Assembly (NCBI RefSeq): GCF_013167455.1
Contig: NZ_CP038330.1
Strand: one strand, 5' to 3'
Source: Escherichia coli O157:H7
GTDB taxonomy: Bacteria; Pseudomonadota; Gammaproteobacteria; Enterobacterales; Enterobacteriaceae
DNA: 64,000 nucleotides
Positions 25,575-60,912 of the stretch are shown in pieces. The notes under the pieces are model-generated. The model ran no database searches, had not been told where the DNA came from, and saw only the letters and a program-made list of their open reading frames with translations. Numbering within the stretch: position 1 is the first letter of the stretch; the number at the start of each line of letters is the position of its first letter. The translations under genes were made by a program, and so were the position numbers.

Positions 25575-26394
25575 GGCACTGTTGCAAAGTTAGCGATGAG
25601 GCAGCCTTTTGTCTTATTCAAAGGCCTTACATTTCAAAAACTCTGCTTACCAGGCGCATTTCGCCCAGGGGATCACCATAATAAAATGCTGAGGCCTGGC
25701 CTTTGCGTAGTGCACGCATCACCTCAATACCTTTGATGGTGGCGTAAGCCGTCTTCATGGATTTAAATCCCAGCGTGGCGCCGATTATCCGTTTCAGTTT
25801 GCCATGATCGCATTCAATCACGTTGTTCCGGTACTTAATCTGTCGGTGTTCAACGTCAGACGGGCACCGGCCTTCGCGTTTGAGCAGAGCAAGCGCGCGA
25901 CCATAGGCGGGCGCTTTATCCGTGTTGATGAATCGCGGGATCTGCCACTTCTTCACGTTGTTGAGGATTTTACCCAGAAACCGGTATGCAGCTTTGCTGT
26001 TACGACGGGAGGAGAGATAAAAATCGACAGTGCGGCCCCGGCTGTCGACGGCCCGGTACAGATACGCCCAGCGGCCATTGACCTTCACGTAGGTTTCATC
26101 CATGTGCCACGGGCAAAGATCGGAAGGGTTACGCCAGTACCAGCGCAGCCGTTTTTCCATTTCAGGCGCATAACGCTGAACCCAGCGGTAAATCGTGGAG
26201 TGATCGACATTCACTCCGCGTTCAGCCAGCATCTCCTGCAGCTCACGGTAACTGATGCCGTATTTGCAGTACCAGCGTACGGCCCACAGAATGATGTCAC
26301 GCTGAAAATGCCGGCCTTTGAATGGGTTCATGTGCAGCTCCATCAGCAAAAGGGGATGATAAGTTTATCACCACCGACTATTTGCAACAGTGCC
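25575..26394 (-). mobile_element. IS26, complete 820-bp copy
   Basis: 14-bp terminal IRs GGCACTGTTGCAAA at 25575-25588 and (reverse complement) 26381-26394; intact tnp26. Confidence 0.95.
25627..26331 (-). CDS. tnp26: IS26 transposase Tnp26 (wild-type Gly184)
   Basis: 234 aa MNPFKGRHFQRDIILWAVRWY...; contains RIIGATLGF. Confidence 0.95.
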   Translation of the reverse strand: MNPFKGRHFQRDIILWAVRWYCKYGISYRELQEMLAERGVNVDHSTIYRWVQRYAPEMEKRLRWYWRNPSDLCPWHMDETYVKVNGRWAYLYRAVDSRGRTVDFYLSSRRNSKAAYRFLGKILNNVKKWQIPRFINTDKAPAYGRALALLKREGRCPSDVEHRQIKYRNNVIECDHGKLKRIIGATLGFKSMKTAYATIKGIEVMRALRKGQASAFYYGDPLGEMRLVSRVFEM

Positions 26395-27098
26395 TACATT
26401 TCAAAAACTCTGCTTACCAGGCGCATTTCGCCCAGGGGATCACCATAATAAAATGCTGAGGCCTGGCCTTTGCGTAGTGCACGCATCACCTCAATACCTT
26501 TGATGGTGGCGTAAGCCGTCTTCATGGATTTAAATCCCAGCGTGGCGTTGATTATCCGTTTCAGTTTGCCATGATCGCATTCAATCACGTTGTTCCGGTA
26601 CTTAATCTGTCGGTGTTCAACGTCAGACGGGCACCGGCCTTCGCGTTTGAGCAGAGCAAGCGCGCGACCATAGGCGGGCGCTTTATCCGTGTTGATGAAT
26701 CGTGGGATCTGCCACTTCTTCACGTTGTTGAGGATTTTACCCAGAAACCGGTATGCAGCTTTGCTGTTACGACGGGAGGAGAGATAAAAATCGACAGTGC
26801 GGCCCCGGCTGTCGACGGCCCGGTACAGATACGCCCAGCGGCCATTGACCTTCACGTAGGTTTCATCCATGTGCCACGGGCAAAGATCGGAAGGGTTACG
26901 CCAGTACCAGCGCAGCCGTTTTTCCATTTCAGGCGCATAACGCTGAACCCAGCGGTAAATCGTGGAGTGATCGACATTCACTCCGCGTTCAGCCAGCATC
27001 TCCTGCAGCTCACGGTAACTGATGCCGTATTTGCAGTACCAGCGTACGGCCCACAGAATGATGTCACGCTGAAAATGCCGGCCTTTGAATGGGTTCAT
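26394..27098 (-). CDS. tnp26: IS26 transposase, G184N variant
   Basis: Same as Tnp26 except RIINATLGF (GGC->AAC); stop codon recreated as TAG at the junction. Confidence 0.9.
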   Translation of the reverse strand: MNPFKGRHFQRDIILWAVRWYCKYGISYRELQEMLAERGVNVDHSTIYRWVQRYAPEMEKRLRWYWRNPSDLCPWHMDETYVKVNGRWAYLYRAVDSRGRTVDFYLSSRRNSKAAYRFLGKILNNVKKWQIPRFINTDKAPAYGRALALLKREGRCPSDVEHRQIKYRNNVIECDHGKLKRIINATLGFKSMKTAYATIKGIEVMRALRKGQASAFYYGDPLGEMRLVSRVFEM

Positions 27099-27161
27099 GT
27101 GCAGCTCCATCAGCAAAAGGGGATGATAAGTTTATCACCACCGACTATTTGCAACAGTGCC
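26395..27161 (-). mobile_element. IS26 truncated tandem copy 2 (767 bp; lacks the 53-bp tnp-distal end including one IR)
   Basis: Begins at the tnp stop codon directly abutting the IRL of copy 1; ends with TTTGCAACAGTGCC. Confidence 0.85.
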
Positions 27162-27865
27162 TACATTTCAAAAACTCTGCTTACCAGGCGCATTTCGCCC
27201 AGGGGATCACCATAATAAAATGCTGAGGCCTGGCCTTTGCGTAGTGCACGCATCACCTCAATACCTTTGATGGTGGCGTAAGCCGTCTTCATGGATTTAA
27301 ATCCCAGCGTGGCGTTGATTATCCGTTTCAGTTTGCCATGATCGCATTCAATCACGTTGTTCCGGTACTTAATCTGTCGGTGTTCAACGTCAGACGGGCA
27401 CCGGCCTTCGCGTTTGAGCAGAGCAAGCGCGCGACCATAGGCGGGCGCTTTATCCGTGTTGATGAATCGTGGGATCTGCCACTTCTTCACGTTGTTGAGG
27501 ATTTTACCCAGAAACCGGTATGCAGCTTTGCTGTTACGACGGGAGGAGAGATAAAAATCGACAGTGCGGCCCCGGCTGTCGACGGCCCGGTACAGATACG
27601 CCCAGCGGCCATTGACCTTCACGTAGGTTTCATCCATGTGCCACGGGCAAAGATCGGAAGGGTTACGCCAGTACCAGCGCAGCCGTTTTTCCATTTCAGG
27701 CGCATAACGCTGAACCCAGCGGTAAATCGTGGAGTGATCGACATTCACTCCGCGTTCAGCCAGCATCTCCTGCAGCTCACGGTAACTGATGCCGTATTTG
27801 CAGTACCAGCGTACGGCCCACAGAATGATGTCACGCTGAAAATGCCGGCCTTTGAATGGGTTCAT
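27161..27865 (-). CDS. tnp26: IS26 transposase, G184N variant
   Basis: Identical to the copy-2 transposase. Confidence 0.9.
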   Translation of the reverse strand: MNPFKGRHFQRDIILWAVRWYCKYGISYRELQEMLAERGVNVDHSTIYRWVQRYAPEMEKRLRWYWRNPSDLCPWHMDETYVKVNGRWAYLYRAVDSRGRTVDFYLSSRRNSKAAYRFLGKILNNVKKWQIPRFINTDKAPAYGRALALLKREGRCPSDVEHRQIKYRNNVIECDHGKLKRIINATLGFKSMKTAYATIKGIEVMRALRKGQASAFYYGDPLGEMRLVSRVFEM

Positions 27866-27928
27866 GTGCAGCTCCATCAGCAAAAGGGGATGATAAGTTT
27901 ATCACCACCGACTATTTGCAACAGTGCC
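27162..27928 (-). mobile_element. IS26 truncated tandem copy 3 (767 bp)
   Basis: Identical unit to copy 2; terminal IR TTTGCAACAGTGCC ends at 27928. Confidence 0.85.
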
Positions 27929-36420: not shown

Positions 36421-39400
36421 ATGAGATCGAGACCTTCCCTTTTACTGATGCGAAACCTGCGGTCATTGGCCGTTGTGGTGCTCGCAACTTTGCCATGCGT
36501 TGCTTTTGCACAATGGCGGGTTGTAGCCGTGAGCACCGAAGTAGACAAAATGCGCTTCAACACCATCATAGACGCGCATTCCTTCATGAAGAATTATCGC
36601 TCTGGTGAGGAGCAAGGGAAGGGAACGCCAGTTGGGGATGCGCTTTATCCGGTTGCCAGTTATGGTGATGGCCGTTATGTCTCCAGGATCTGTTTTAAGT
36701 ATCTAGGTGCTACTGGCGATTATGACCCCACTACCTGCACTGGCGACCCAGCTACGGTCTACTGGCGCTCAACCTATGTTCTGCCGGGTGAGATGGATAA
36801 AACACCGTTCCTGGACAGGGATCTCGGCTTACCAACAACGACCATGTGTGTAGGGAACCCTATCCATCTTGGCACCGGCAACAAGTTCCAGGCTGAACTG
36901 GATTATCAAAGCGGAGGCTCCGACCCTTTCACATTCACCAGATACTACAATAGCCACCTTCCTGATGAAGAGCTCGGCGGCTGGCGGCATACCTACTCGC
37001 GGAGCGTCGAGGTCAACGCCTCGAAGTACGGTGAGAACATGGTTGTCCTGCACCGGCCAGAAGGGCAACAACTCGCGTTCTACAACTCGTCCTCTGTCTG
37101 GGTGCCAACATGGAAAACCGATGATACCTTGACGAAGGATGCTACCGGCTGGCGCTACACTCAATCTGACGGGGTAGTCGAGGCCTATGATGAAACCGGA
37201 CGACTGACCGGCATCGAGAAGCCCAACGGCAATCACATCACCCTGAGCTATCTGAACGGAGAGCTATCCTCGATCACTGACGGCTTTGGCCGCACCATCC
37301 AGTTCCAGTATCAAGATGGCCGCATGGTCAGTGTCACCGATCCTGCTGGTGGCAGTATTCAGTACCAGTACAACAGCGCTGGCAAGCTGGCGGAAGTGAT
37401 CTACCAGGACAATACGAGCCGCAGCTATCTCTACGATGACCCGAATGCACCGGGTTTGCTCTCTGGGCTGGTGGACGAGAACGGCAACCGTTTCGCCACA
37501 TGGGGATATGATACTCAGGGGAGAGCGGTTCTAAGCGAACACGCCGGGGGCGCAGAGAAAACTCAGGTAAGCTACAACGCTGACGGAAGCGTCTCTGTCA
37601 CCAATGCCCTCGGCCACGTTCAGCGATACACCTACAGTCGCCACAATGGGATGCTCAAGCCTGATGTGGTTGAGGGTGCGCCGTGTACCGGCTTTGTGGG
37701 CGGCAAGGAAACCTACGTCTACGACAGCAAAGGCCTCGTCTCCAGCATTACTGACCGCGCTGGGCAGAAGCGCACGTTCACCCATAACGACCGGGGATTG
37801 GAAACCACCCAGATAGACCAGGACGGGGGTAAGGTTACGACCGACTGGCTTCCTTCCAAGTCGCTCCCGGCAAAAATCACAGAACCAACCAGGATCACTG
37901 AGCTCACCTACGACACTCATCTCCGGGTGATAAGCCGCAAGGTCACTGATCGCAGCTCGGGCGCTTCCCGGACATGGACCTACACCTATGCCCCTGTTGG
38001 TACAGGAAAGCCGAGCCTGTTGGCCTCGGTTGATGGTCCGCGCACCGACGTCAGCGATGTTACGACATTTGACTACGATGACCAGGGCAACCTGATCCGG
38101 ACAACGAACGCGCTGGGGCAGGTGACGCAGTTTGGTGACTACGACGCGAACGGTCGCGCCGGGACCATTCAGGGTGTCAATGGTGTAACCCAAACCCTCA
38201 CCTATGACGCCAGAGGAAGACTTGTCAGCTCCACTGGGCCAGAAGGAACCACGGTCTACAACTATGATGCTGTGGGCCTCCTGAGTTCGCTGACCAAGCC
38301 AAATGGTGCAACCGTCAGCTATGAGTACGACGCTGCACATCGGCTGGTGGCGGAAACAGATGCACAGGGCAACCGGCGCGAGCTTGAGCTCAATGACCTC
38401 GGGAACCCAGTAGAAGAGCGACTGCTCGATGCGCTGGGCCAGACCCGTTGGATAGAGCGCCGGATCTTCAACGAAATCGGCTGGCTCTCCAGTGTCTCCG
38501 ACGCCTATAGCAATCAGTCATCGTTTTCCTACGATGTGGTGGCAAACCTGATACAGGAGACCAGTCCCTCTGGTAACACACACTCCTACAAGTACGACGG
38601 CTTCCATCACCGGACACAAACGACCGATCCCCTCGGGAAGGTCACGCAGGTGCTCTACAAGGATACCGGCGATGTTTACCGTGTCTCCGACCCTCGTTCG
38701 CGCCTGACCTACTACAGCTACAACGGCTTTGGCGAAGTGACCCAGGTCCGGAGCCCGGACACCGGCACCACCGACATTACCTATGACGAAGCCGGTAACG
38801 TGGCAACGCGCAAAACGGCCAAGGGGCAAACCACAAGCTACAGCTATGACGCGCTGAACCGGATCATCGAAACCTCCAGCGATGTCGCTGGCGAATCGCC
38901 AATTCTGTACGGGTACGACGAAGCAACCTCACCATACGGCATAGGCCGCTTGACCTCAGTCGATGATGGCAACGGTGTCCGGAGATTTGGCTACACCCCC
39001 GAAGGATGGCTGGCTTACGAAACCTGGGAAACCCACGGGCAGAGCCTGACTACCCAGTACCAATACGATGGTGCAGGCCTCGTCACGAAGATCACGTATC
39101 CCAGTGGCCGTGAGGTCTCCTACACCCGTGACTCAGCCGGTGACGTCATCGAGGTGACAACGACACAAGCAGGCACCACAACAAACCTGGCAAGCCAGAT
39201 TGAGCGAGCGCCCTTTGGCCCCGTCACCAGTATGGTCAGAGGGAACGGCATTTCAGAAAGCCGCACTCTGGATCTCGATTACCGTGTCACCGGCATCGAC
39301 GCTGCTAGGGTGCATTCGCTGGTCTATCGGTACACGCCAGACTCGTTGATTTCAGCCATAGACGACAATCTCAGCTCATCAGTCAATCAGTCACTCGGTT

Positions 39401-40674
39401 ATGACGCGGTTGGCCGCATCACCTCTGCTGAGGGGATCTATGGCGTTTTGGGCTATGGCTATGACGCCACCGGCAACAGGACCTCGATCACGACCGATGG
39501 CCTGAGCCAAAGCTACACCATCAACTACATGAACAACTGGTTGGTGAAGGCCGGGCAAACCTCCAGAAGCTATGACGCCAATGGCAACCTGACGAAGCAG
39601 GGGGCGGATACCTTCACCTATGACAGCCAGAACCGGCTGGTGGCCGCAACGGTCGCGGGAGTGACTGTAAGCTACACATACAACCATCTGGATCAGCGTG
39701 TAACCAAGACCCTAAACGGGCATACCCGGCTGCTGGTTTACGACCTGGCAGGAAACCTCATCGAGGAGCTGGACGCGGCCACTGGAGACGTGCTGGCGGA
39801 GTACATCTGGCTCGATGGGACACCCTTGGGCTTTGTTCAGTCAGGACAGACCTACCAAGTCCACGTCGATCACCTGGGCACCCCGAAGGCACTGACCGAC
39901 GTCAGCGGCCAAGTCGTTTGGAAGGCGAGCTACAGCCCGTTCGGTAAGGCCAGCATCATCATCCAGGGGCCAACCTTCAACCTGCGATTCCCAGGACAGT
40001 ATTACGACGCGGAGACCGGGTTCCACTACAACTGGCGGCGTTACTACGACCCAGCGACCGGGCGGTACATTACCAGCGACCCTCTTGGCCTGATCGATGG
40101 AGTAAACACCTACGGGTATGTGCATGGAAACCCTATGTCCAATACCGACCCGACGGGTGAATTTGCGTTTGTTGGTGCAGGTATTGGAGCTGGGTTGGAG
40201 CTACTTAGCCAACTAATCGAAAATAATGGGAGTTGGAAATGTGTTAGTTGGTCAAAAGTTGGAATCGCCGGAGCGATTGGGGCTATAGGTGGCGGCTGGG
40301 CGTCAGGAGTTTTCAGACATGCCAGCTCCGGTAAATCGTGGTTCAAATTAAGCCAAAAATGGAGCAATGTCTCACCCAGAGTAAGGAAAGTTCAAGGGGT
40401 TCCACGAGGTAATGAGCTTCACCATTGGGCTATTCAGAGAAATGGCAAGTTTGGCAAATATGTTCCTGACTCAATAAAAAACCATCCTTGGAACTTGAAG
40501 TCCATTCCAAGAGATATTCACCAAAACATTCACGGCAATGGACCTACCCCATATAGCGCATTTGGTCGTTGGTGGCACGGGACGCCTGAATGGGCAAAAG
40601 TAGCTCAAGCCTCTCCTGTTAGTGGTGGTTTAGCTGATTCAATAAATGATGAGGGATGCGGTTGTGCAAATTGA
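36421..40674 (+). CDS. rhs: Rhs/YD-repeat polymorphic toxin with Sec signal peptide and C-terminal HNH-like (LHH-type) nuclease domain
   Basis: 1417 aa; signal peptide MRSRPSLLLMRNLRSLAVVVLATLPCVAFA; many YD repeats; Rhs core end DPLGLIDGVNTYGYVHGNPMSNTDPTGE; C-terminal ~170 aa with glycine-zipper segment and ELHHW...HPWN...HQNIHG. Confidence 0.9.
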   Translation: MRSRPSLLLMRNLRSLAVVVLATLPCVAFAQWRVVAVSTEVDKMRFNTIIDAHSFMKNYRSGEEQGKGTPVGDALYPVASYGDGRYVSRICFKYLGATGDYDPTTCTGDPATVYWRSTYVLPGEMDKTPFLDRDLGLPTTTMCVGNPIHLGTGNKFQAELDYQSGGSDPFTFTRYYNSHLPDEELGGWRHTYSRSVEVNASKYGENMVVLHRPEGQQLAFYNSSSVWVPTWKTDDTLTKDATGWRYTQSDGVVEAYDETGRLTGIEKPNGNHITLSYLNGELSSITDGFGRTIQFQYQDGRMVSVTDPAGGSIQYQYNSAGKLAEVIYQDNTSRSYLYDDPNAPGLLSGLVDENGNRFATWGYDTQGRAVLSEHAGGAEKTQVSYNADGSVSVTNALGHVQRYTYSRHNGMLKPDVVEGAPCTGFVGGKETYVYDSKGLVSSITDRAGQKRTFTHNDRGLETTQIDQDGGKVTTDWLPSKSLPAKITEPTRITELTYDTHLRVISRKVTDRSSGASRTWTYTYAPVGTGKPSLLASVDGPRTDVSDVTTFDYDDQGNLIRTTNALGQVTQFGDYDANGRAGTIQGVNGVTQTLTYDARGRLVSSTGPEGTTVYNYDAVGLLSSLTKPNGATVSYEYDAAHRLVAETDAQGNRRELELNDLGNPVEERLLDALGQTRWIERRIFNEIGWLSSVSDAYSNQSSFSYDVVANLIQETSPSGNTHSYKYDGFHHRTQTTDPLGKVTQVLYKDTGDVYRVSDPRSRLTYYSYNGFGEVTQVRSPDTGTTDITYDEAGNVATRKTAKGQTTSYSYDALNRIIETSSDVAGESPILYGYDEATSPYGIGRLTSVDDGNGVRRFGYTPEGWLAYETWETHGQSLTTQYQYDGAGLVTKITYPSGREVSYTRDSAGDVIEVTTTQAGTTTNLASQIERAPFGPVTSMVRGNGISESRTLDLDYRVTGIDAARVHSLVYRYTPDSLISAIDDNLSSSVNQSLGYDAVGRITSAEGIYGVLGYGYDATGNRTSITTDGLSQSYTINYMNNWLVKAGQTSRSYDANGNLTKQGADTFTYDSQNRLVAATVAGVTVSYTYNHLDQRVTKTLNGHTRLLVYDLAGNLIEELDAATGDVLAEYIWLDGTPLGFVQSGQTYQVHVDHLGTPKALTDVSGQVVWKASYSPFGKASIIIQGPTFNLRFPGQYYDAETGFHYNWRRYYDPATGRYITSDPLGLIDGVNTYGYVHGNPMSNTDPTGEFAFVGAGIGAGLELLSQLIENNGSWKCVSWSKVGIAGAIGAIGGGWASGVFRHASSGKSWFKLSQKWSNVSPRVRKVQGVPRGNELHHWAIQRNGKFGKYVPDSIKNHPWNLKSIPRDIHQNIHGNGPTPYSAFGRWWHGTPEWAKVAQASPVSGGLADSINDEGCGCAN

Positions 40675-41086
40675 ATTTCCAGCGCTGCTTGTGAGCAGCA
40701 AGAAAAGGTCGCTCTTCGTAGTGGCATCAGAATCCGAGTTCGGGAAATGTACTATTCAGTCTTTGAGGAACGGTTATTTTGAGCTGATGGACATTTATGA
40801 TTCGGAAGGTCGTCACTACAAAATAGACGAGGTTGCGAGCTACAAGCCGCTAAGTCCATTCTGGTACTGGCCTGTAGAAATTGTGATGTATGGTTCTCGA
40901 CTGTTTAAGGCTAATTTCAATGCTGTTCTTATCTCTAATCTGGATTGCAAGGAGTTAAAATCTGAACTTTGTGATTTGGCTAAAAAGTACAGAAGTAATT
41001 TGGATTCCGGCGTCGGAATTGAAAAGATTATGGAGGAAATGGAGTCTGCCAGAACAATTAAAGAATTGATAAAGGTTTTTGGCTAG
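40646..41086 (+). CDS. putative cognate immunity protein for the Rhs C-terminal toxin (start uncertain)
   Basis: ORF overlapping the rhs stop, typical toxin-immunity arrangement; no known domain recognised. Confidence 0.5.
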   Translation: MMRDAVVQIEFPALLVSSKKRSLFVVASESEFGKCTIQSLRNGYFELMDIYDSEGRHYKIDEVASYKPLSPFWYWPVEIVMYGSRLFKANFNAVLISNLDCKELKSELCDLAKKYRSNLDSGVGIEKIMEEMESARTIKELIKVFG

Positions 41087-41238
41087 TTATTCATTGAATA
41101 CGCTGGTGTTAGTCTAGCTAACCGACGCCAGCGGCCAAGTGTTTGGAAGGCGAGCCATCATAGAGTCAGTAGAGAGAGATACTTTTGGAAATCAATAGTA
41201 TTATGATTGGTACAAATGAGTTGTAGCTCCATATTTTA

Positions 41239-41709
41239 AAGGGGGATTTCAGAGAAATGAAGAATAAGAAGGTAATAACTTTGATAATGGCCGCAGCCGC
41301 ATCATGCTCGTCAGTCTACGCCGCGACATTACCGACCAGTGAGGTAGACGCATACATACTTGCGATGAACACCATGTCACCTATCACTGCAAAGTACACC
41401 ATCTAGTACAAGCAAGCGGTTGAGCAGAAATGCAATACAGCCCTGAGCGTTGAGCAGCTCAACTCAAAGGCATTCACCAATGTTGTCCAGGCAATGGTGA
41501 GTAGTGAGACCGTCGATAGAATGGGGCTTGATGCTGCTGGTGGATCACTCCAGGATACCCTGTCTGTGATCGGCAAGAACGTCACATGCAGTGACCTGAA
41601 CGCGCCATTTAAAGCACTCTTGGATGATAAGGACTTCACCAGAAAGCATCAGCACCTATCGAAGGTGCTGCATACTTGGAATGAAGTTGTTTCTCAAAGC
41701 AAACCCTGA
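41239..41709 (+). pseudogene. signal-peptide protein gene interrupted by an in-frame TAG
   Basis: Frame opens at 41239 (MKNKKVITLIMAAAASCSSVYA...), has TAG at 41401-41403, and continues in the same frame as track ORF 41494..41709. Confidence 0.35.
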
Positions 41710-41713
41710 GTAA

Positions 41714-41742
41714 CAAAAAGGAGCCTAACTGGCTCCTTTTTT
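41714..41742. terminator. bidirectional rho-independent terminator
   Basis: AAAAAGGAGCCTAACTGGCTCCTTTTTT between convergent genes. Confidence 0.65.
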
Positions 41743-42387
41743 AATGGGGATGATGTTACGTTCGTGGACGTTATTTTCACTCGGGATATGTAACGTTGAA
41801 AAAGGCGTACCGACAAGAGAGTGGTCACATAGCTCTCCATAATAGATGAGCGACAAAATCTCTTGCTCGTTGATTTTTCCCACCTTAAAAAGGTAATTGA
41901 TTATTGCTGTATCCAGTAGGTCGTGACACCCATTAAGCAGATCCACGATATTGGCCGCAGCTTCATTTTCCTCTCCGTCATCTCGACCGGCTAATACTGA
42001 TTCAACCCAAGCCTCAAGGCTCGGATGTCCCTCAGCGAGCTCTATTTGACGGCACTCGTTCTCGATCAACCCTGTGATTGCTTCGTTGAGCGTTCCGCCA
42101 TAAGTCGGCATGTTGAGAACAACTCCAAATCCGGGGATTTCTTTTTGGATTGGCTTCGCATCCTTGGGAGCTGATTTCAGCCACAGGAAAAACCAGATCC
42201 CAGAGCTTATGTCTTCCGGCTTGACCTGGTTGGCCGCAAGGAATTTGGAAACCTCGTTACAGATGATGCCATCTGGCGCTGCCATCTCGTAAATACCCGC
42301 CATCAGATCTTCAAGGCTCTTATACATATTATCTCTCGCACCTGTACATGATGTTTTCACTATCGTTGTTAAGCGTTTTTTCAGCAA
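41725..42387 (-). CDS. hypothetical protein (start may be internal Met at 42327)
   Basis: 220-aa ORF; no motif recognised. Confidence 0.45.
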   Translation of the reverse strand: MLKKRLTTIVKTSCTGARDNMYKSLEDLMAGIYEMAAPDGIICNEVSKFLAANQVKPEDISSGIWFFLWLKSAPKDAKPIQKEIPGFGVVLNMPTYGGTLNEAITGLIENECRQIELAEGHPSLEAWVESVLAGRDDGEENEAAANIVDLLNGCHDLLDTAIINYLFKVGKINEQEILSLIYYGELCDHSLVGTPFSTLHIPSENNVHERNIIPIKKGAS

Positions 42388-42433
42388 GTATGTTCCAGCG
42401 AGACATCTTATACCATTCCATCTAAATCTGTAA

Positions 42434-42485
42434 AATTACCGTATTACCGTATTACCGTATTACCGTAATTATGATAATTACGGTA
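42434..42485. repeat. 4x ATTACCGT tandem repeat plus 15-bp palindrome TAATTATGATAATTA
   Basis: In the divergent intergenic region; the same palindrome recurs at 47386-47400. Confidence 0.6.
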
Positions 42486-42601
42486 AATAAATTTAAGTTC
42501 TTCTTGCTGTTGTTCTACTTATTAAAATGTATCTTTGAAAAAGTAGAGTTTTTGGAATAGGATAGGTGGTGCTGAATGCCCACTTTTTACAAGGAGCGCG
42601 A

Positions 42602-58939: not shown

Positions 58940-59212
58940 ATGGATAAATGCCAATTGATAGACATCCCAAGCGACCCAGAGAAGAAACGTGAGTGGATCA
59001 AGTACAAACTCAAGATCCAGGGGCTTTCTCTGGCCGCATTGGGCAGAAAACACAAAACATCTCGGCAGGTGGTGTCTACGGCACTCTATAAGCCCAGTCC
59101 ACGCTGGGAACATGAGATAGCTACAGCTTTGGGTGTGAAGCCGTCTGAGATTTGGCCGGAGCGGTACGACGAAGAACACGAAATACCCCTCAGACATAAG
59201 GAGGCAAGCTGA
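58940..59212 (+). CDS. Ner/Nlp-family HTH DNA-binding protein (possible Acr1-type repressor)
   Basis: 90 aa; SLAALGRKHKTSRQVVSTALYKPSPRWEHEIATALGVKPSEIWPERY matches the Ner family pattern. Confidence 0.6.
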   Translation: MDKCQLIDIPSDPEKKREWIKYKLKIQGLSLAALGRKHKTSRQVVSTALYKPSPRWEHEIATALGVKPSEIWPERYDEEHEIPLRHKEAS

Positions 59213-59745
59213 TGAAGAACAAAGCCAAGGCGCTAGTTCTGTCTGCGGCTCTCCTTTCATCAACAGCGAATGCTATTGACCTGAGCGGAACCATCTTCGA
59301 CAAAGCAGCGAAAGCATATAACCTCGACCCTCTTCTAGTGTATTCGGTCGCATTGGCCGAATCTGCATCAGGGAGAGGTAATGGCTCTATAAGTCCTTGG
59401 CCTTGGACGCTTCGCGTTCCTGGGCTTCCTTTCTATGCTAAGTCGGAAGATCAGGCAAAGGCTAAGCTCGCTGAGTTTCAGCAGCAGTACGGTCGTGCCA
59501 TTGATGTCGGGTTTATGCAAGTGAGCATCCGGTGGAATGGTCATAGAGTTTCTTCTCCAGCAGATCTTCTCGACCCAGAGACCAACGTCATGGTTGGGGC
59601 AGAGGTGCTATCAGAAGCCATTCAGTCATCTCCAAATGACTTGGAGCTTGGCGTTGGCCGCTATCACGCCTGGGAAGACGAAATCCGAGCCAGAAACTAT
59701 GGTAGCCGAGTCTTGGCTATCTATCGCAACCTTCGTGATTTGTGA
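59212..59745 (+). CDS. lytic transglycosylase (SLT-domain) with signal peptide
   Basis: Signal peptide MKNKAKALVLSAALLSSTANA; SLT motifs (LLVYSVALAESASG, GFMQVS, RYHA). Confidence 0.65.
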   Translation: MKNKAKALVLSAALLSSTANAIDLSGTIFDKAAKAYNLDPLLVYSVALAESASGRGNGSISPWPWTLRVPGLPFYAKSEDQAKAKLAEFQQQYGRAIDVGFMQVSIRWNGHRVSSPADLLDPETNVMVGAEVLSEAIQSSPNDLELGVGRYHAWEDEIRARNYGSRVLAIYRNLRDL

Positions 59746-59755
59746 GGGGGGCGGA

Positions 59756-60364
59756 ATGTTGGAACTGGATATTATTGGTGCGTGGGATGCAAGAGCCGTC
59801 AACCTCGATCAAGAAGAAGCTGATAGAAACGTCTACGAGTTCGATCTGACATTGTGGAACCTGCTATCCACTCTGGCAAAAGAACGTCCAGATGATGCGG
59901 CCTCACAATTTTCTTTGGGCATGGACACCGTTCAAAAGCTGTCACTGGCAACACCTTCCCAATTGGAAGCTCTGGCCTCTGGCGTGTTGATCTCTTTCAA
60001 ACTCGAAACAGCAGAGCAGAACATCATCACGCGACTCTCTGGCGACTACGACCCTGTAGTTTTTATCAACCATAGTGTTGATGAATTTGATGCTGCCTAC
60101 TGGTTGCTATTTAACCGCGTCGCATCGAGAGACCCGGAGATGGCAAAGGAAGTTTTCGGGGTTTCGAGAGAGCTTGCGGAGCTGGTGGCTAAGGCAACAG
60201 ACAGCCAGTTGCGCCACATGTCTGGAACAACGGTTACGCATTTTACGCTTCGTTTTGCTCCGAGCATCATTGAAGAAATTCTCGATGACAGCCGGGAAGA
60301 GTTAACACACCCGGTATTGAAAAAACTGCAACAGTCTCTACAGGGACGTGGGAGGTGGAGATGA
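59756..60364 (+). CDS. FlhD-like subunit of a master transfer activator (AcaD/SetD-like)
   Basis: ATG at 59756 with GAGGGGGG RBS; ~202 aa; stop overlaps the start of the FlhC-like gene. Confidence 0.5.
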   Translation: MLELDIIGAWDARAVNLDQEEADRNVYEFDLTLWNLLSTLAKERPDDAASQFSLGMDTVQKLSLATPSQLEALASGVLISFKLETAEQNIITRLSGDYDPVVFINHSVDEFDAAYWLLFNRVASRDPEMAKEVFGVSRELAELVAKATDSQLRHMSGTTVTHFTLRFAPSIIEEILDDSREELTHPVLKKLQQSLQGRGRWR

Positions 60365-60912
60365 ACATTGGCAACTCTGGTACATTGGGTCGCTGGGTTA
60401 CAGCTCGACACATGGCCCTTGCTGGGTACATCACAAAAATCATCATGATCGAGACTGGTCTGACCTACAAACAGGTCAGACGGCTTTACCAGGATCTGGA
60501 GAGGGACGGATATACTCTGGAACGAAAATCCAGAACTTTCCGGGGTGGTGCGACACTGATTCATAGTCACACATCCAAGATACAGGCCTCTCTTCTAATG
60601 CAGCTCTACTTCAACATTGGTGGAGAAGCCGTGTTGCGGTCTGTGAACATCAAAGCCTTGAACAAGGCATTTAGAATGTATCACGCAATCCGCAAAGAAG
60701 TGCCCGGAATGAAAGGTGCTCGGTGGGCTCCGTTTGATATTACTGATGCCTGGTGTCTTGCTTCGGAGCTGAGAAGTGGGGACGCAATGCTGGAGGTGTG
60801 CGACAACTGCAAGTGTACGTACTTCACCTCTGTTAATCAAAGAACCTGCGTTGAATGTCCGTTCTGCAAAGAACAAGGAAGGCATGGTGGTGGGGAGAAA
60901 GAGTGTGCTTGA
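60361..60912 (+). CDS. FlhC-like subunit of a master transfer activator (AcaC/SetC-like)
   Basis: ATG at 60361 with GGAGG RBS; C-terminal zinc-binding cysteines CDNCKC...CVECPFC as in FlhC. Confidence 0.6.
   Translation: MNIGNSGTLGRWVTARHMALAGYITKIIMIETGLTYKQVRRLYQDLERDGYTLERKSRTFRGGATLIHSHTSKIQASLLMQLYFNIGGEAVLRSVNIKALNKAFRMYHAIRKEVPGMKGARWAPFDITDAWCLASELRSGDAMLEVCDNCKCTYFTSVNQRTCVECPFCKEQGRHGGGEKECA

Follow-up and report, generated by a model that had tools for sequence, protein, structure and literature searches.

The locus at 41239–41709 of the window, the 64,000-nucleotide stretch of Escherichia coli O157:H7 DNA analysed here (contig NZ_CP038330.1), is very probably a pseudogene, in which one C>T transition at 41404 changed the CAG codon for Gln50 into TAG in a gene conserved on the backbone of conjugative plasmids of the IncC/IncA type. 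It is an ordinary lineage-specific nonsense pseudogene and already known, since RefSeq flags it. On plasmid pUMNK88, the segment NC_017645.1 140288–140740, equivalent to window 41257–41709, is annotated by RefSeq/PGAP as pseudogene UMNK88_RS34290, ‘hypothetical protein; internal stop’. This is the same feature, with the same sequence and coordinates relative to rhs1, and the locus differs solely by an 8-bp repeat-number change about 1 kb downstream. A search of the literature found no paper discussing this ORF or SNP. The tests for a nonsense pseudogene revealed colinear intact orthologues (homologues of 145–158 aa), a stop derived by a single substitution, and purifying selection on the ancestral frame.

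Translation of 41239–41709 on the plus strand yields a single frame with exactly one internal stop. A script located this premature TAG at 41404–41406, which is codon 50 of a 150-codon frame running from ATG 41257 to position 41709, with the terminal stop TGA at 41707–41709 (Table 1). An earlier note on this DNA had described two ORFs in one frame separated by a single TAG, and this description is borne out by the translation and by intact 150-aa orthologues that are colinear over both halves. Its frame end at 41709 is correct, while its TAG at 41401–41403 lies 3 nt away from the real one. The frame does not open at 41239, as had been proposed, but at 41227, after a TAG at 41224–41226 as read from the sequence, and the start is ATG 41257; position 41239 belongs to the Shine-Dalgarno region. 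The Shine-Dalgarno sequence is kept as GGGGGA in IncC alleles and as AGGGAA in an 86%-identical allele.

Table 1. Features of the split gene and its 3′ flank in window coordinates.
Feature	Position	Strand	Description
5′ ORF in ORF list	ATG 41257 to TAG 41404–41406	+	49 aa
3′ ORF in ORF list (track ORF)	ATG 41494 to TGA 41709	+	71 aa; same frame as ATG 41257
Shine-Dalgarno-like AGGGGGA	41240..41246	+	10 nt 5′ of ATG 41257; read from sequence
Predicted signal peptide, codons 1–23	41257..41325	+	MKNKKVITLIMAAAASCSSVYA, next residue A; n-, h- and c-regions, V-Y-A cleavage motif
5′ pseudogene fragment	41257..41406	+	49 codons and premature TAG; all that would be translated
Premature TAG	41404..41406	+	from CAG (Gln50), C>T at 41404; sole difference over 701 bp from 3 sibling plasmids
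Untranslated 3′ remainder	41407..41709	+	codons 51–150 and TGA; in frame, undecayed; contains ORF 41494–41709
Hairpin AAAAAGGAGCC-TAACT-GGCTCCTTTTT	41715..41741	.	RNA fold −20.6 kcal/mol, z = −3.9

The N-terminus, with MKNKK, a hydrophobic core and VYA/A, can be read as a Sec signal peptide, and such features are consistent with the secreted-protein label given in the earlier note. A lipoprotein reading, taken from the name of one UniRef cluster member, was rejected: Cys17 is absent from the Vibrio homologues, which keep an AxA-type site (A-Q-A) instead of Cys, so that there is no conserved lipobox. A minus-strand ORF at 41403–41639 (78 aa) was also discarded, as it overlaps the conserved plus-strand frame and is without support. 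A promoter scan detected nothing in the 170-bp intergenic region 5′ of the gene. On the 3′ side, the hairpin is probably a bidirectional intrinsic terminator common to the convergent gene 41725–42327(−); it was not listed by a consensus terminator scan, and folding confirmed it.

The locus belongs to the IncC (IncA/C) plasmid backbone directly 3′ of rhs1. Its 701 bp match 122 E. coli records, nearly all of them plasmids and most with at least 99% identity. Over 12.7 kb, the window shows 0 mismatches to pUMNK88 and only an 8-bp repeat-number gap, and along a stretch of 24 kb it is at least 99.9% identical to pSN254 and related plasmids from Salmonella and E. coli. Plasmid pSN254 carries the exact allele of the window, TAG included. 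The rhs1 gene marks type 1 IncC plasmids, among which pSN254 is classified as type 1b (PMC8169936). In the window, the gene for the RHS-repeat protein lies upstream of the locus at 36421–40674, and the small ORF at 40646–41086 is probably its immunity gene. Within this region (36421–41086), rhs1 encodes 1417 aa with DUF6531, RHS repeats and an RHS core, followed by a C-terminal tip without a Pfam match; the small ORF (146 aa) overlaps rhs1 and has no family match.

A comparison of alleles traces the stop to a sense codon. Three plasmids sharing the rhs1 flank (AR_0128 tig00000792, pK71-77-1-NDM and AB66 plasmid 2) have one difference from the window over 701 bp, namely C against T at 41404, and all three have the intact 150-aa protein WP_000791469.1 annotated at the locus. 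The genes for WP_000791469.1 (for example on pK71-77-1-NDM, AR_0128 and pECO-c85f) have the same neighbours as the gene in the window, and in the rhs1-type siblings their DNA is identical except at 41404; however, they carry CAG (Gln50) and not TAG, from which a full-length secreted protein would be expected. The rhs2-type IncC plasmid pECO-c85f combines CAG with one synonymous difference and has 150 aa annotated. CAG is also present, with the frame spanning the site, in plasmid pEco15-1 and in a chromosomal copy of E. coli AH04, both with 86% nucleotide identity. Their shared allele encodes WP_001553092.1 (150 aa, about 86% nucleotide and roughly 90% amino acid identity), which has length, convergent neighbour, Gln50 and both cysteines in common with the IncC protein and whose gene is intact. 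Unlike the window, pEco15-1 has no rhs gene upstream, and a 241-aa ORF directly abuts the 150-aa gene.

In a protein alignment reaching down to 59% identity (Vibrio, Xenorhabdus), column 50 is mostly Gln and otherwise Leu or His, with Gln in the Vibrio homologues (148–154 aa). The complete homologues in this alignment measure about 148–154 aa, except for one longer entry with an N-terminal extension. No stop at column 50 occurs among the homologues examined. The earlier note had proposed comparison with homologues as a check, and when this was run, none of those examined ended at codon 49 through a stop; where database entries are shorter, they represent fragments or fusions at a junction. Because every outgroup examined has CAG or another sense codon (Gln in Vibrio), TAG is, on the evidence of these alleles, the derived state, reached from CAG (Gln50) by one C>T transition.

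The distribution of the two alleles was determined in PLSDB with 41-mers centred on 41404, using megablast with a 28-nt exact word, so that the other allele cannot seed. The TAG 41-mer was found in 247 plasmid records from 10 genera (Salmonella 140, Escherichia 50, Klebsiella 30 and 7 more genera) and the CAG 41-mer in 689, which puts TAG at ~26% of the ~936 allele-typed records, although these counts reflect database sampling that is heavy in US Salmonella surveillance. We infer from the identical flanks, and not from a plasmid phylogeny, that the TAG allele arose once, among rhs1-type IncC plasmids, in a pSN254/pUMNK88-like sub-lineage. As a practical marker, the SNP at 41404 cleanly separates this sub-lineage from near-identical rhs1-type IncC siblings. 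The nonsense mutation had been called recent in the earlier note, and this holds in terms of sequence divergence, with no decay downstream of the stop; it is not private to this isolate, since pSN254 and the 247 PLSDB records share it.

To characterize the ancestral protein, the window allele was compared with the 86%-identical allele by the Nei-Gojobori method, which gave a dN/dS of 0.07 overall (44 synonymous and 16 non-synonymous differences) and of 0.036 for codons 51–150 after the TAG. Both values indicate a real protein-coding gene in the ancestral frame. AlphaFold2, run with a 13-sequence alignment, predicts an eight-helix all-alpha domain with a mean pLDDT of 85.5 and values above 93 over residues 30–140, residues 1–23 (pLDDT below 50) being the sole low-confidence part of the model. 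No sequence of the cleaned alignment departs from Cys at positions 59 and 111, which suggests that these two residues may form a disulfide in the periplasm. The intact product would be a Sec-exported, periplasmic all-alpha protein of 150 aa.

Known families and folds offered little for comparison. Pfam and NCBIfam gave no match above threshold, and even the distant full-length family members (including those of 145–158 aa) have no Pfam domain. Below threshold, DUF4168 (E 0.014, 16.9 bits against a gathering cut-off of 25.8) and SurA_N_2 (E 0.049, 13.9 bits against 28.5) show a weak likeness, both as secreted helical proteins, but the protein is a member of neither. PADLOC returned nothing, and PHROGs matched the signal peptide only. 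A sequence-profile search of the PDB had a best E-value of 0.21, and no significant structural match was obtained among PDB sequences and folds. The family is very small, with only 29 clusters recovered when 1.84 billion representative proteins were searched with a profile. Combined, these results describe a conserved component of the IncA/C backbone, predicted to be secreted and modelled as all-alpha, without detectable relatives of known function or fold.

As for the consequence of the stop, the C>T change would have occurred once in the pSN254/pUMNK88-type sub-lineage, and all descendant plasmids would have inherited TAG. Translation would end after 49 codons, leaving a peptide of at most 26 residues after signal-peptide cleavage. 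Such a peptide would be missing some 80% of the folded domain, with seven of its eight predicted helices and the two conserved cysteines. We infer that the TAG allele is effectively null, and go no further than this because sequence analysis leaves room for low-level natural misreading of UAG. Reinitiation after the stop was considered and rejected, as the in-frame ATG/GTG/TTG codons at 41494, 41497, 41521, 41566, 41620 and 41665 have no convincing upstream Shine-Dalgarno sequence; a product restarted there would stay in the cytoplasm as a partial protein, without signal peptide and Cys59. Annotators should not call the 71-aa ORF 41494–41709 as a gene. No polar effect is expected either, because the convergent neighbour and the terminator hairpin leave no downstream gene on the transcript.

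Besides a nonsense mutation, which stands, the earlier note had offered a sequencing error and a site of stop-codon readthrough as alternatives, and neither of these two agrees with the allele data. An error in sequencing or assembly, with C as the true base at 41404, would account for a single-base difference from intact alleles, a typical error signature. The change is a substitution, however, and not a homopolymer indel, and the same T appears in pUMNK88, in pSN254, in many E. coli plasmid records matching at 100% and in the 247 PLSDB records. With this T common to hundreds of independently deposited plasmid records, a sequencing error is left with almost no probability. Leaky termination, in which a near-cognate tRNA or a host amber suppressor reads the TAG usefully and some full-length protein is still made from an attenuated, not a dead, gene, deserves more discussion and is nevertheless very unlikely. 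The 100 codons downstream still form an undamaged open frame, 247 plasmid records have retained the allele, and the host of one record with TAG is a DH5alpha strain. UAG can be misread by near-cognate tRNA-Gln, and glnV(supE) hosts, as which DH5alpha is commonly listed (glnV44), would insert Gln at UAG and thereby restore the exact wild-type residue and protein. On the other hand, the stop is kept in no homologue (Gln, Leu or His in its place, in proteins of ~150 aa), which gives no sign of selection for recoding, and a conserved recoding site would not be confined to about a quarter of the records and missing from every outgroup. The next base is T (TAGT), and U after a stop codon is an efficient termination context in E. 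coli. An E-value scan of 40600–42600 with Rfam detected no RNA family or structure, the only match being a sub-threshold SraG hit at the terminator. The lack of further decay in the codons after TAG is not evidence of retained function, because decay is not yet expected in a backbone so nearly invariant (0 mismatches over 12.7 kb against pUMNK88). Programmed UAG readthrough and pyrrolysine insertion share the in-frame UAG and the intact downstream frame with this locus, but the likeness is in appearance only, since they differ from it in the conservation of the stop among homologues and in the recoding RNA element, and pyrrolysine machinery is not known as a feature of Enterobacterales.

Selection would be another way to account for the stop. 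That loss of a costly or targeted secreted protein was selected in the pSN254-like lineage, or that the exported 26-residue peptide became active there (neofunctionalisation), is exceedingly unlikely in our assessment. The gene has been struck repeatedly by independent IS26, Tn3-family transposon and deletion events in several plasmid lineages, and the TAG lineage, with its ~26% of allele-typed records, is epidemiologically successful. Recurrent disruption is, however, equally expected for a neutral dispensable gene beside a cargo hotspot, the long-term dN/dS of 0.07 indicates that the protein is normally maintained, and CAG plasmids are still the majority. We also regard it as unlikely that the loss was not neutral, with TAG fixed by selection and the repeated IS, transposon and deletion strikes amounting to removal of a costly or targeted periplasmic protein.

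Under the preferred reading of an ordinary nonsense pseudogene, the stop is one lesion among several. In pWF5_NDM, a 14-bp deletion lies in the gene, which is annotated as ‘frameshifted’, and in pUTAK-15-1, IS26 is inserted into the TAG allele itself. Records from Salmonella Enteritidis and V. cholerae O1 show fusions to IS26 ends near codon 45. Cys111 is lost through an in-frame deletion of 12 nt, IncC and 86%-identical alleles alike have Tn3-family transposons immediately 3′ of the Cys111 codon, and several other junctions fall in the gene too. Given these independent disruptions elsewhere, the gene looks dispensable, a non-essential part of the backbone for which TAG is just one natural null allele among many. 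Such null and insertion alleles in nature indicate that plasmids persist in the field without the protein.

The positions of these junctions form two clusters. An inverted repeat, GTCAC-ATGCA-GTGAC (41581–41595), spans the Cys111 codon, and three different insertion junctions right after this codon, as well as the 12-nt deletion, fall within it, making 41581–41595 an apparent insertion hotspot. Two of the Cys111 junctions could be traced, one to a Tn3-family transposon with PemK/MazE (IncC plasmid) and the other to an strA-strB/resolvase transposon (86%-identical allele). The second cluster of independent insertion junctions covers codons 44–49 (AKYTI; window 41385–41405), adjoining the TAG, and comprises homologues P0013, P0014, P0017, P0042, P0043 and P0047, with IS26 ends in two different frames. 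In AR_0055 unitig_2, an IS1 occupies the 170-bp intergenic region (equivalent to window ~41100–41256) just 5′ of an intact CAG allele, where it may separate promoter and gene.

The surroundings of the homologues vary. In V. cholerae contigs of ~150 kb, the homologue is again found downstream of an Rhs gene and small ORFs, while in a V. vulnificus element its neighbours are a Thoeris-like TIR/SIR2(-STALD) cluster upstream and an integrase downstream. Since the upstream slot is variable (Rhs, Thoeris-like, or no rhs as in pEco15-1), the 150-aa gene looks like a marker of the edge of a variable cargo site or hotspot, which is context and not an explanation of the stop.

Several further observations were made in the window. 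A complete 820-bp IS26 at 25575–26394 is followed head-to-tail by two copies without the first 53 bp (26395–27161 and 27162–27928; 767-bp spacing). Relative to copy 1, copies 2 and 3 carry a GC>TT dinucleotide change near 25768 and a single C/T difference; the dinucleotide may correspond to the Tnp26 G184N ‘IS26*’ variant. The best PLSDB match, in two aligned pieces, covers 23,226 bases where the query has 24,001, and this shortfall of ~775 bp would fit an array with one 767-bp unit less. The array at 25575–27928 reflects either a genuine tandem amplification or an artefact of long-read assembly.

The octamer repeat (ATTACCGT)n at 42435–42466 has 4 copies in the window, 3 in pUMNK88 and AR_0128, and 2 in the rhs2-type pECO-c85f. 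It adjoins the palindrome ACCGTAATTA-TGA-TAATTACGGT in the intergenic region between the divergent 200-aa (−) and 93-aa (+) genes, and may be an operator or iteron-like site with slippage. Finally, 58940–60912 holds a regulatory cluster of acr1, a vcrx147-like gene, acaD and acaC, assigned by gene order and size only. A frameshift in acaC has been described for pSN254 and pAM04528 (Carraro et al. 2014, PMC4207636); the ORF at the acaC position in the window (60355–60912) encodes 185 aa.
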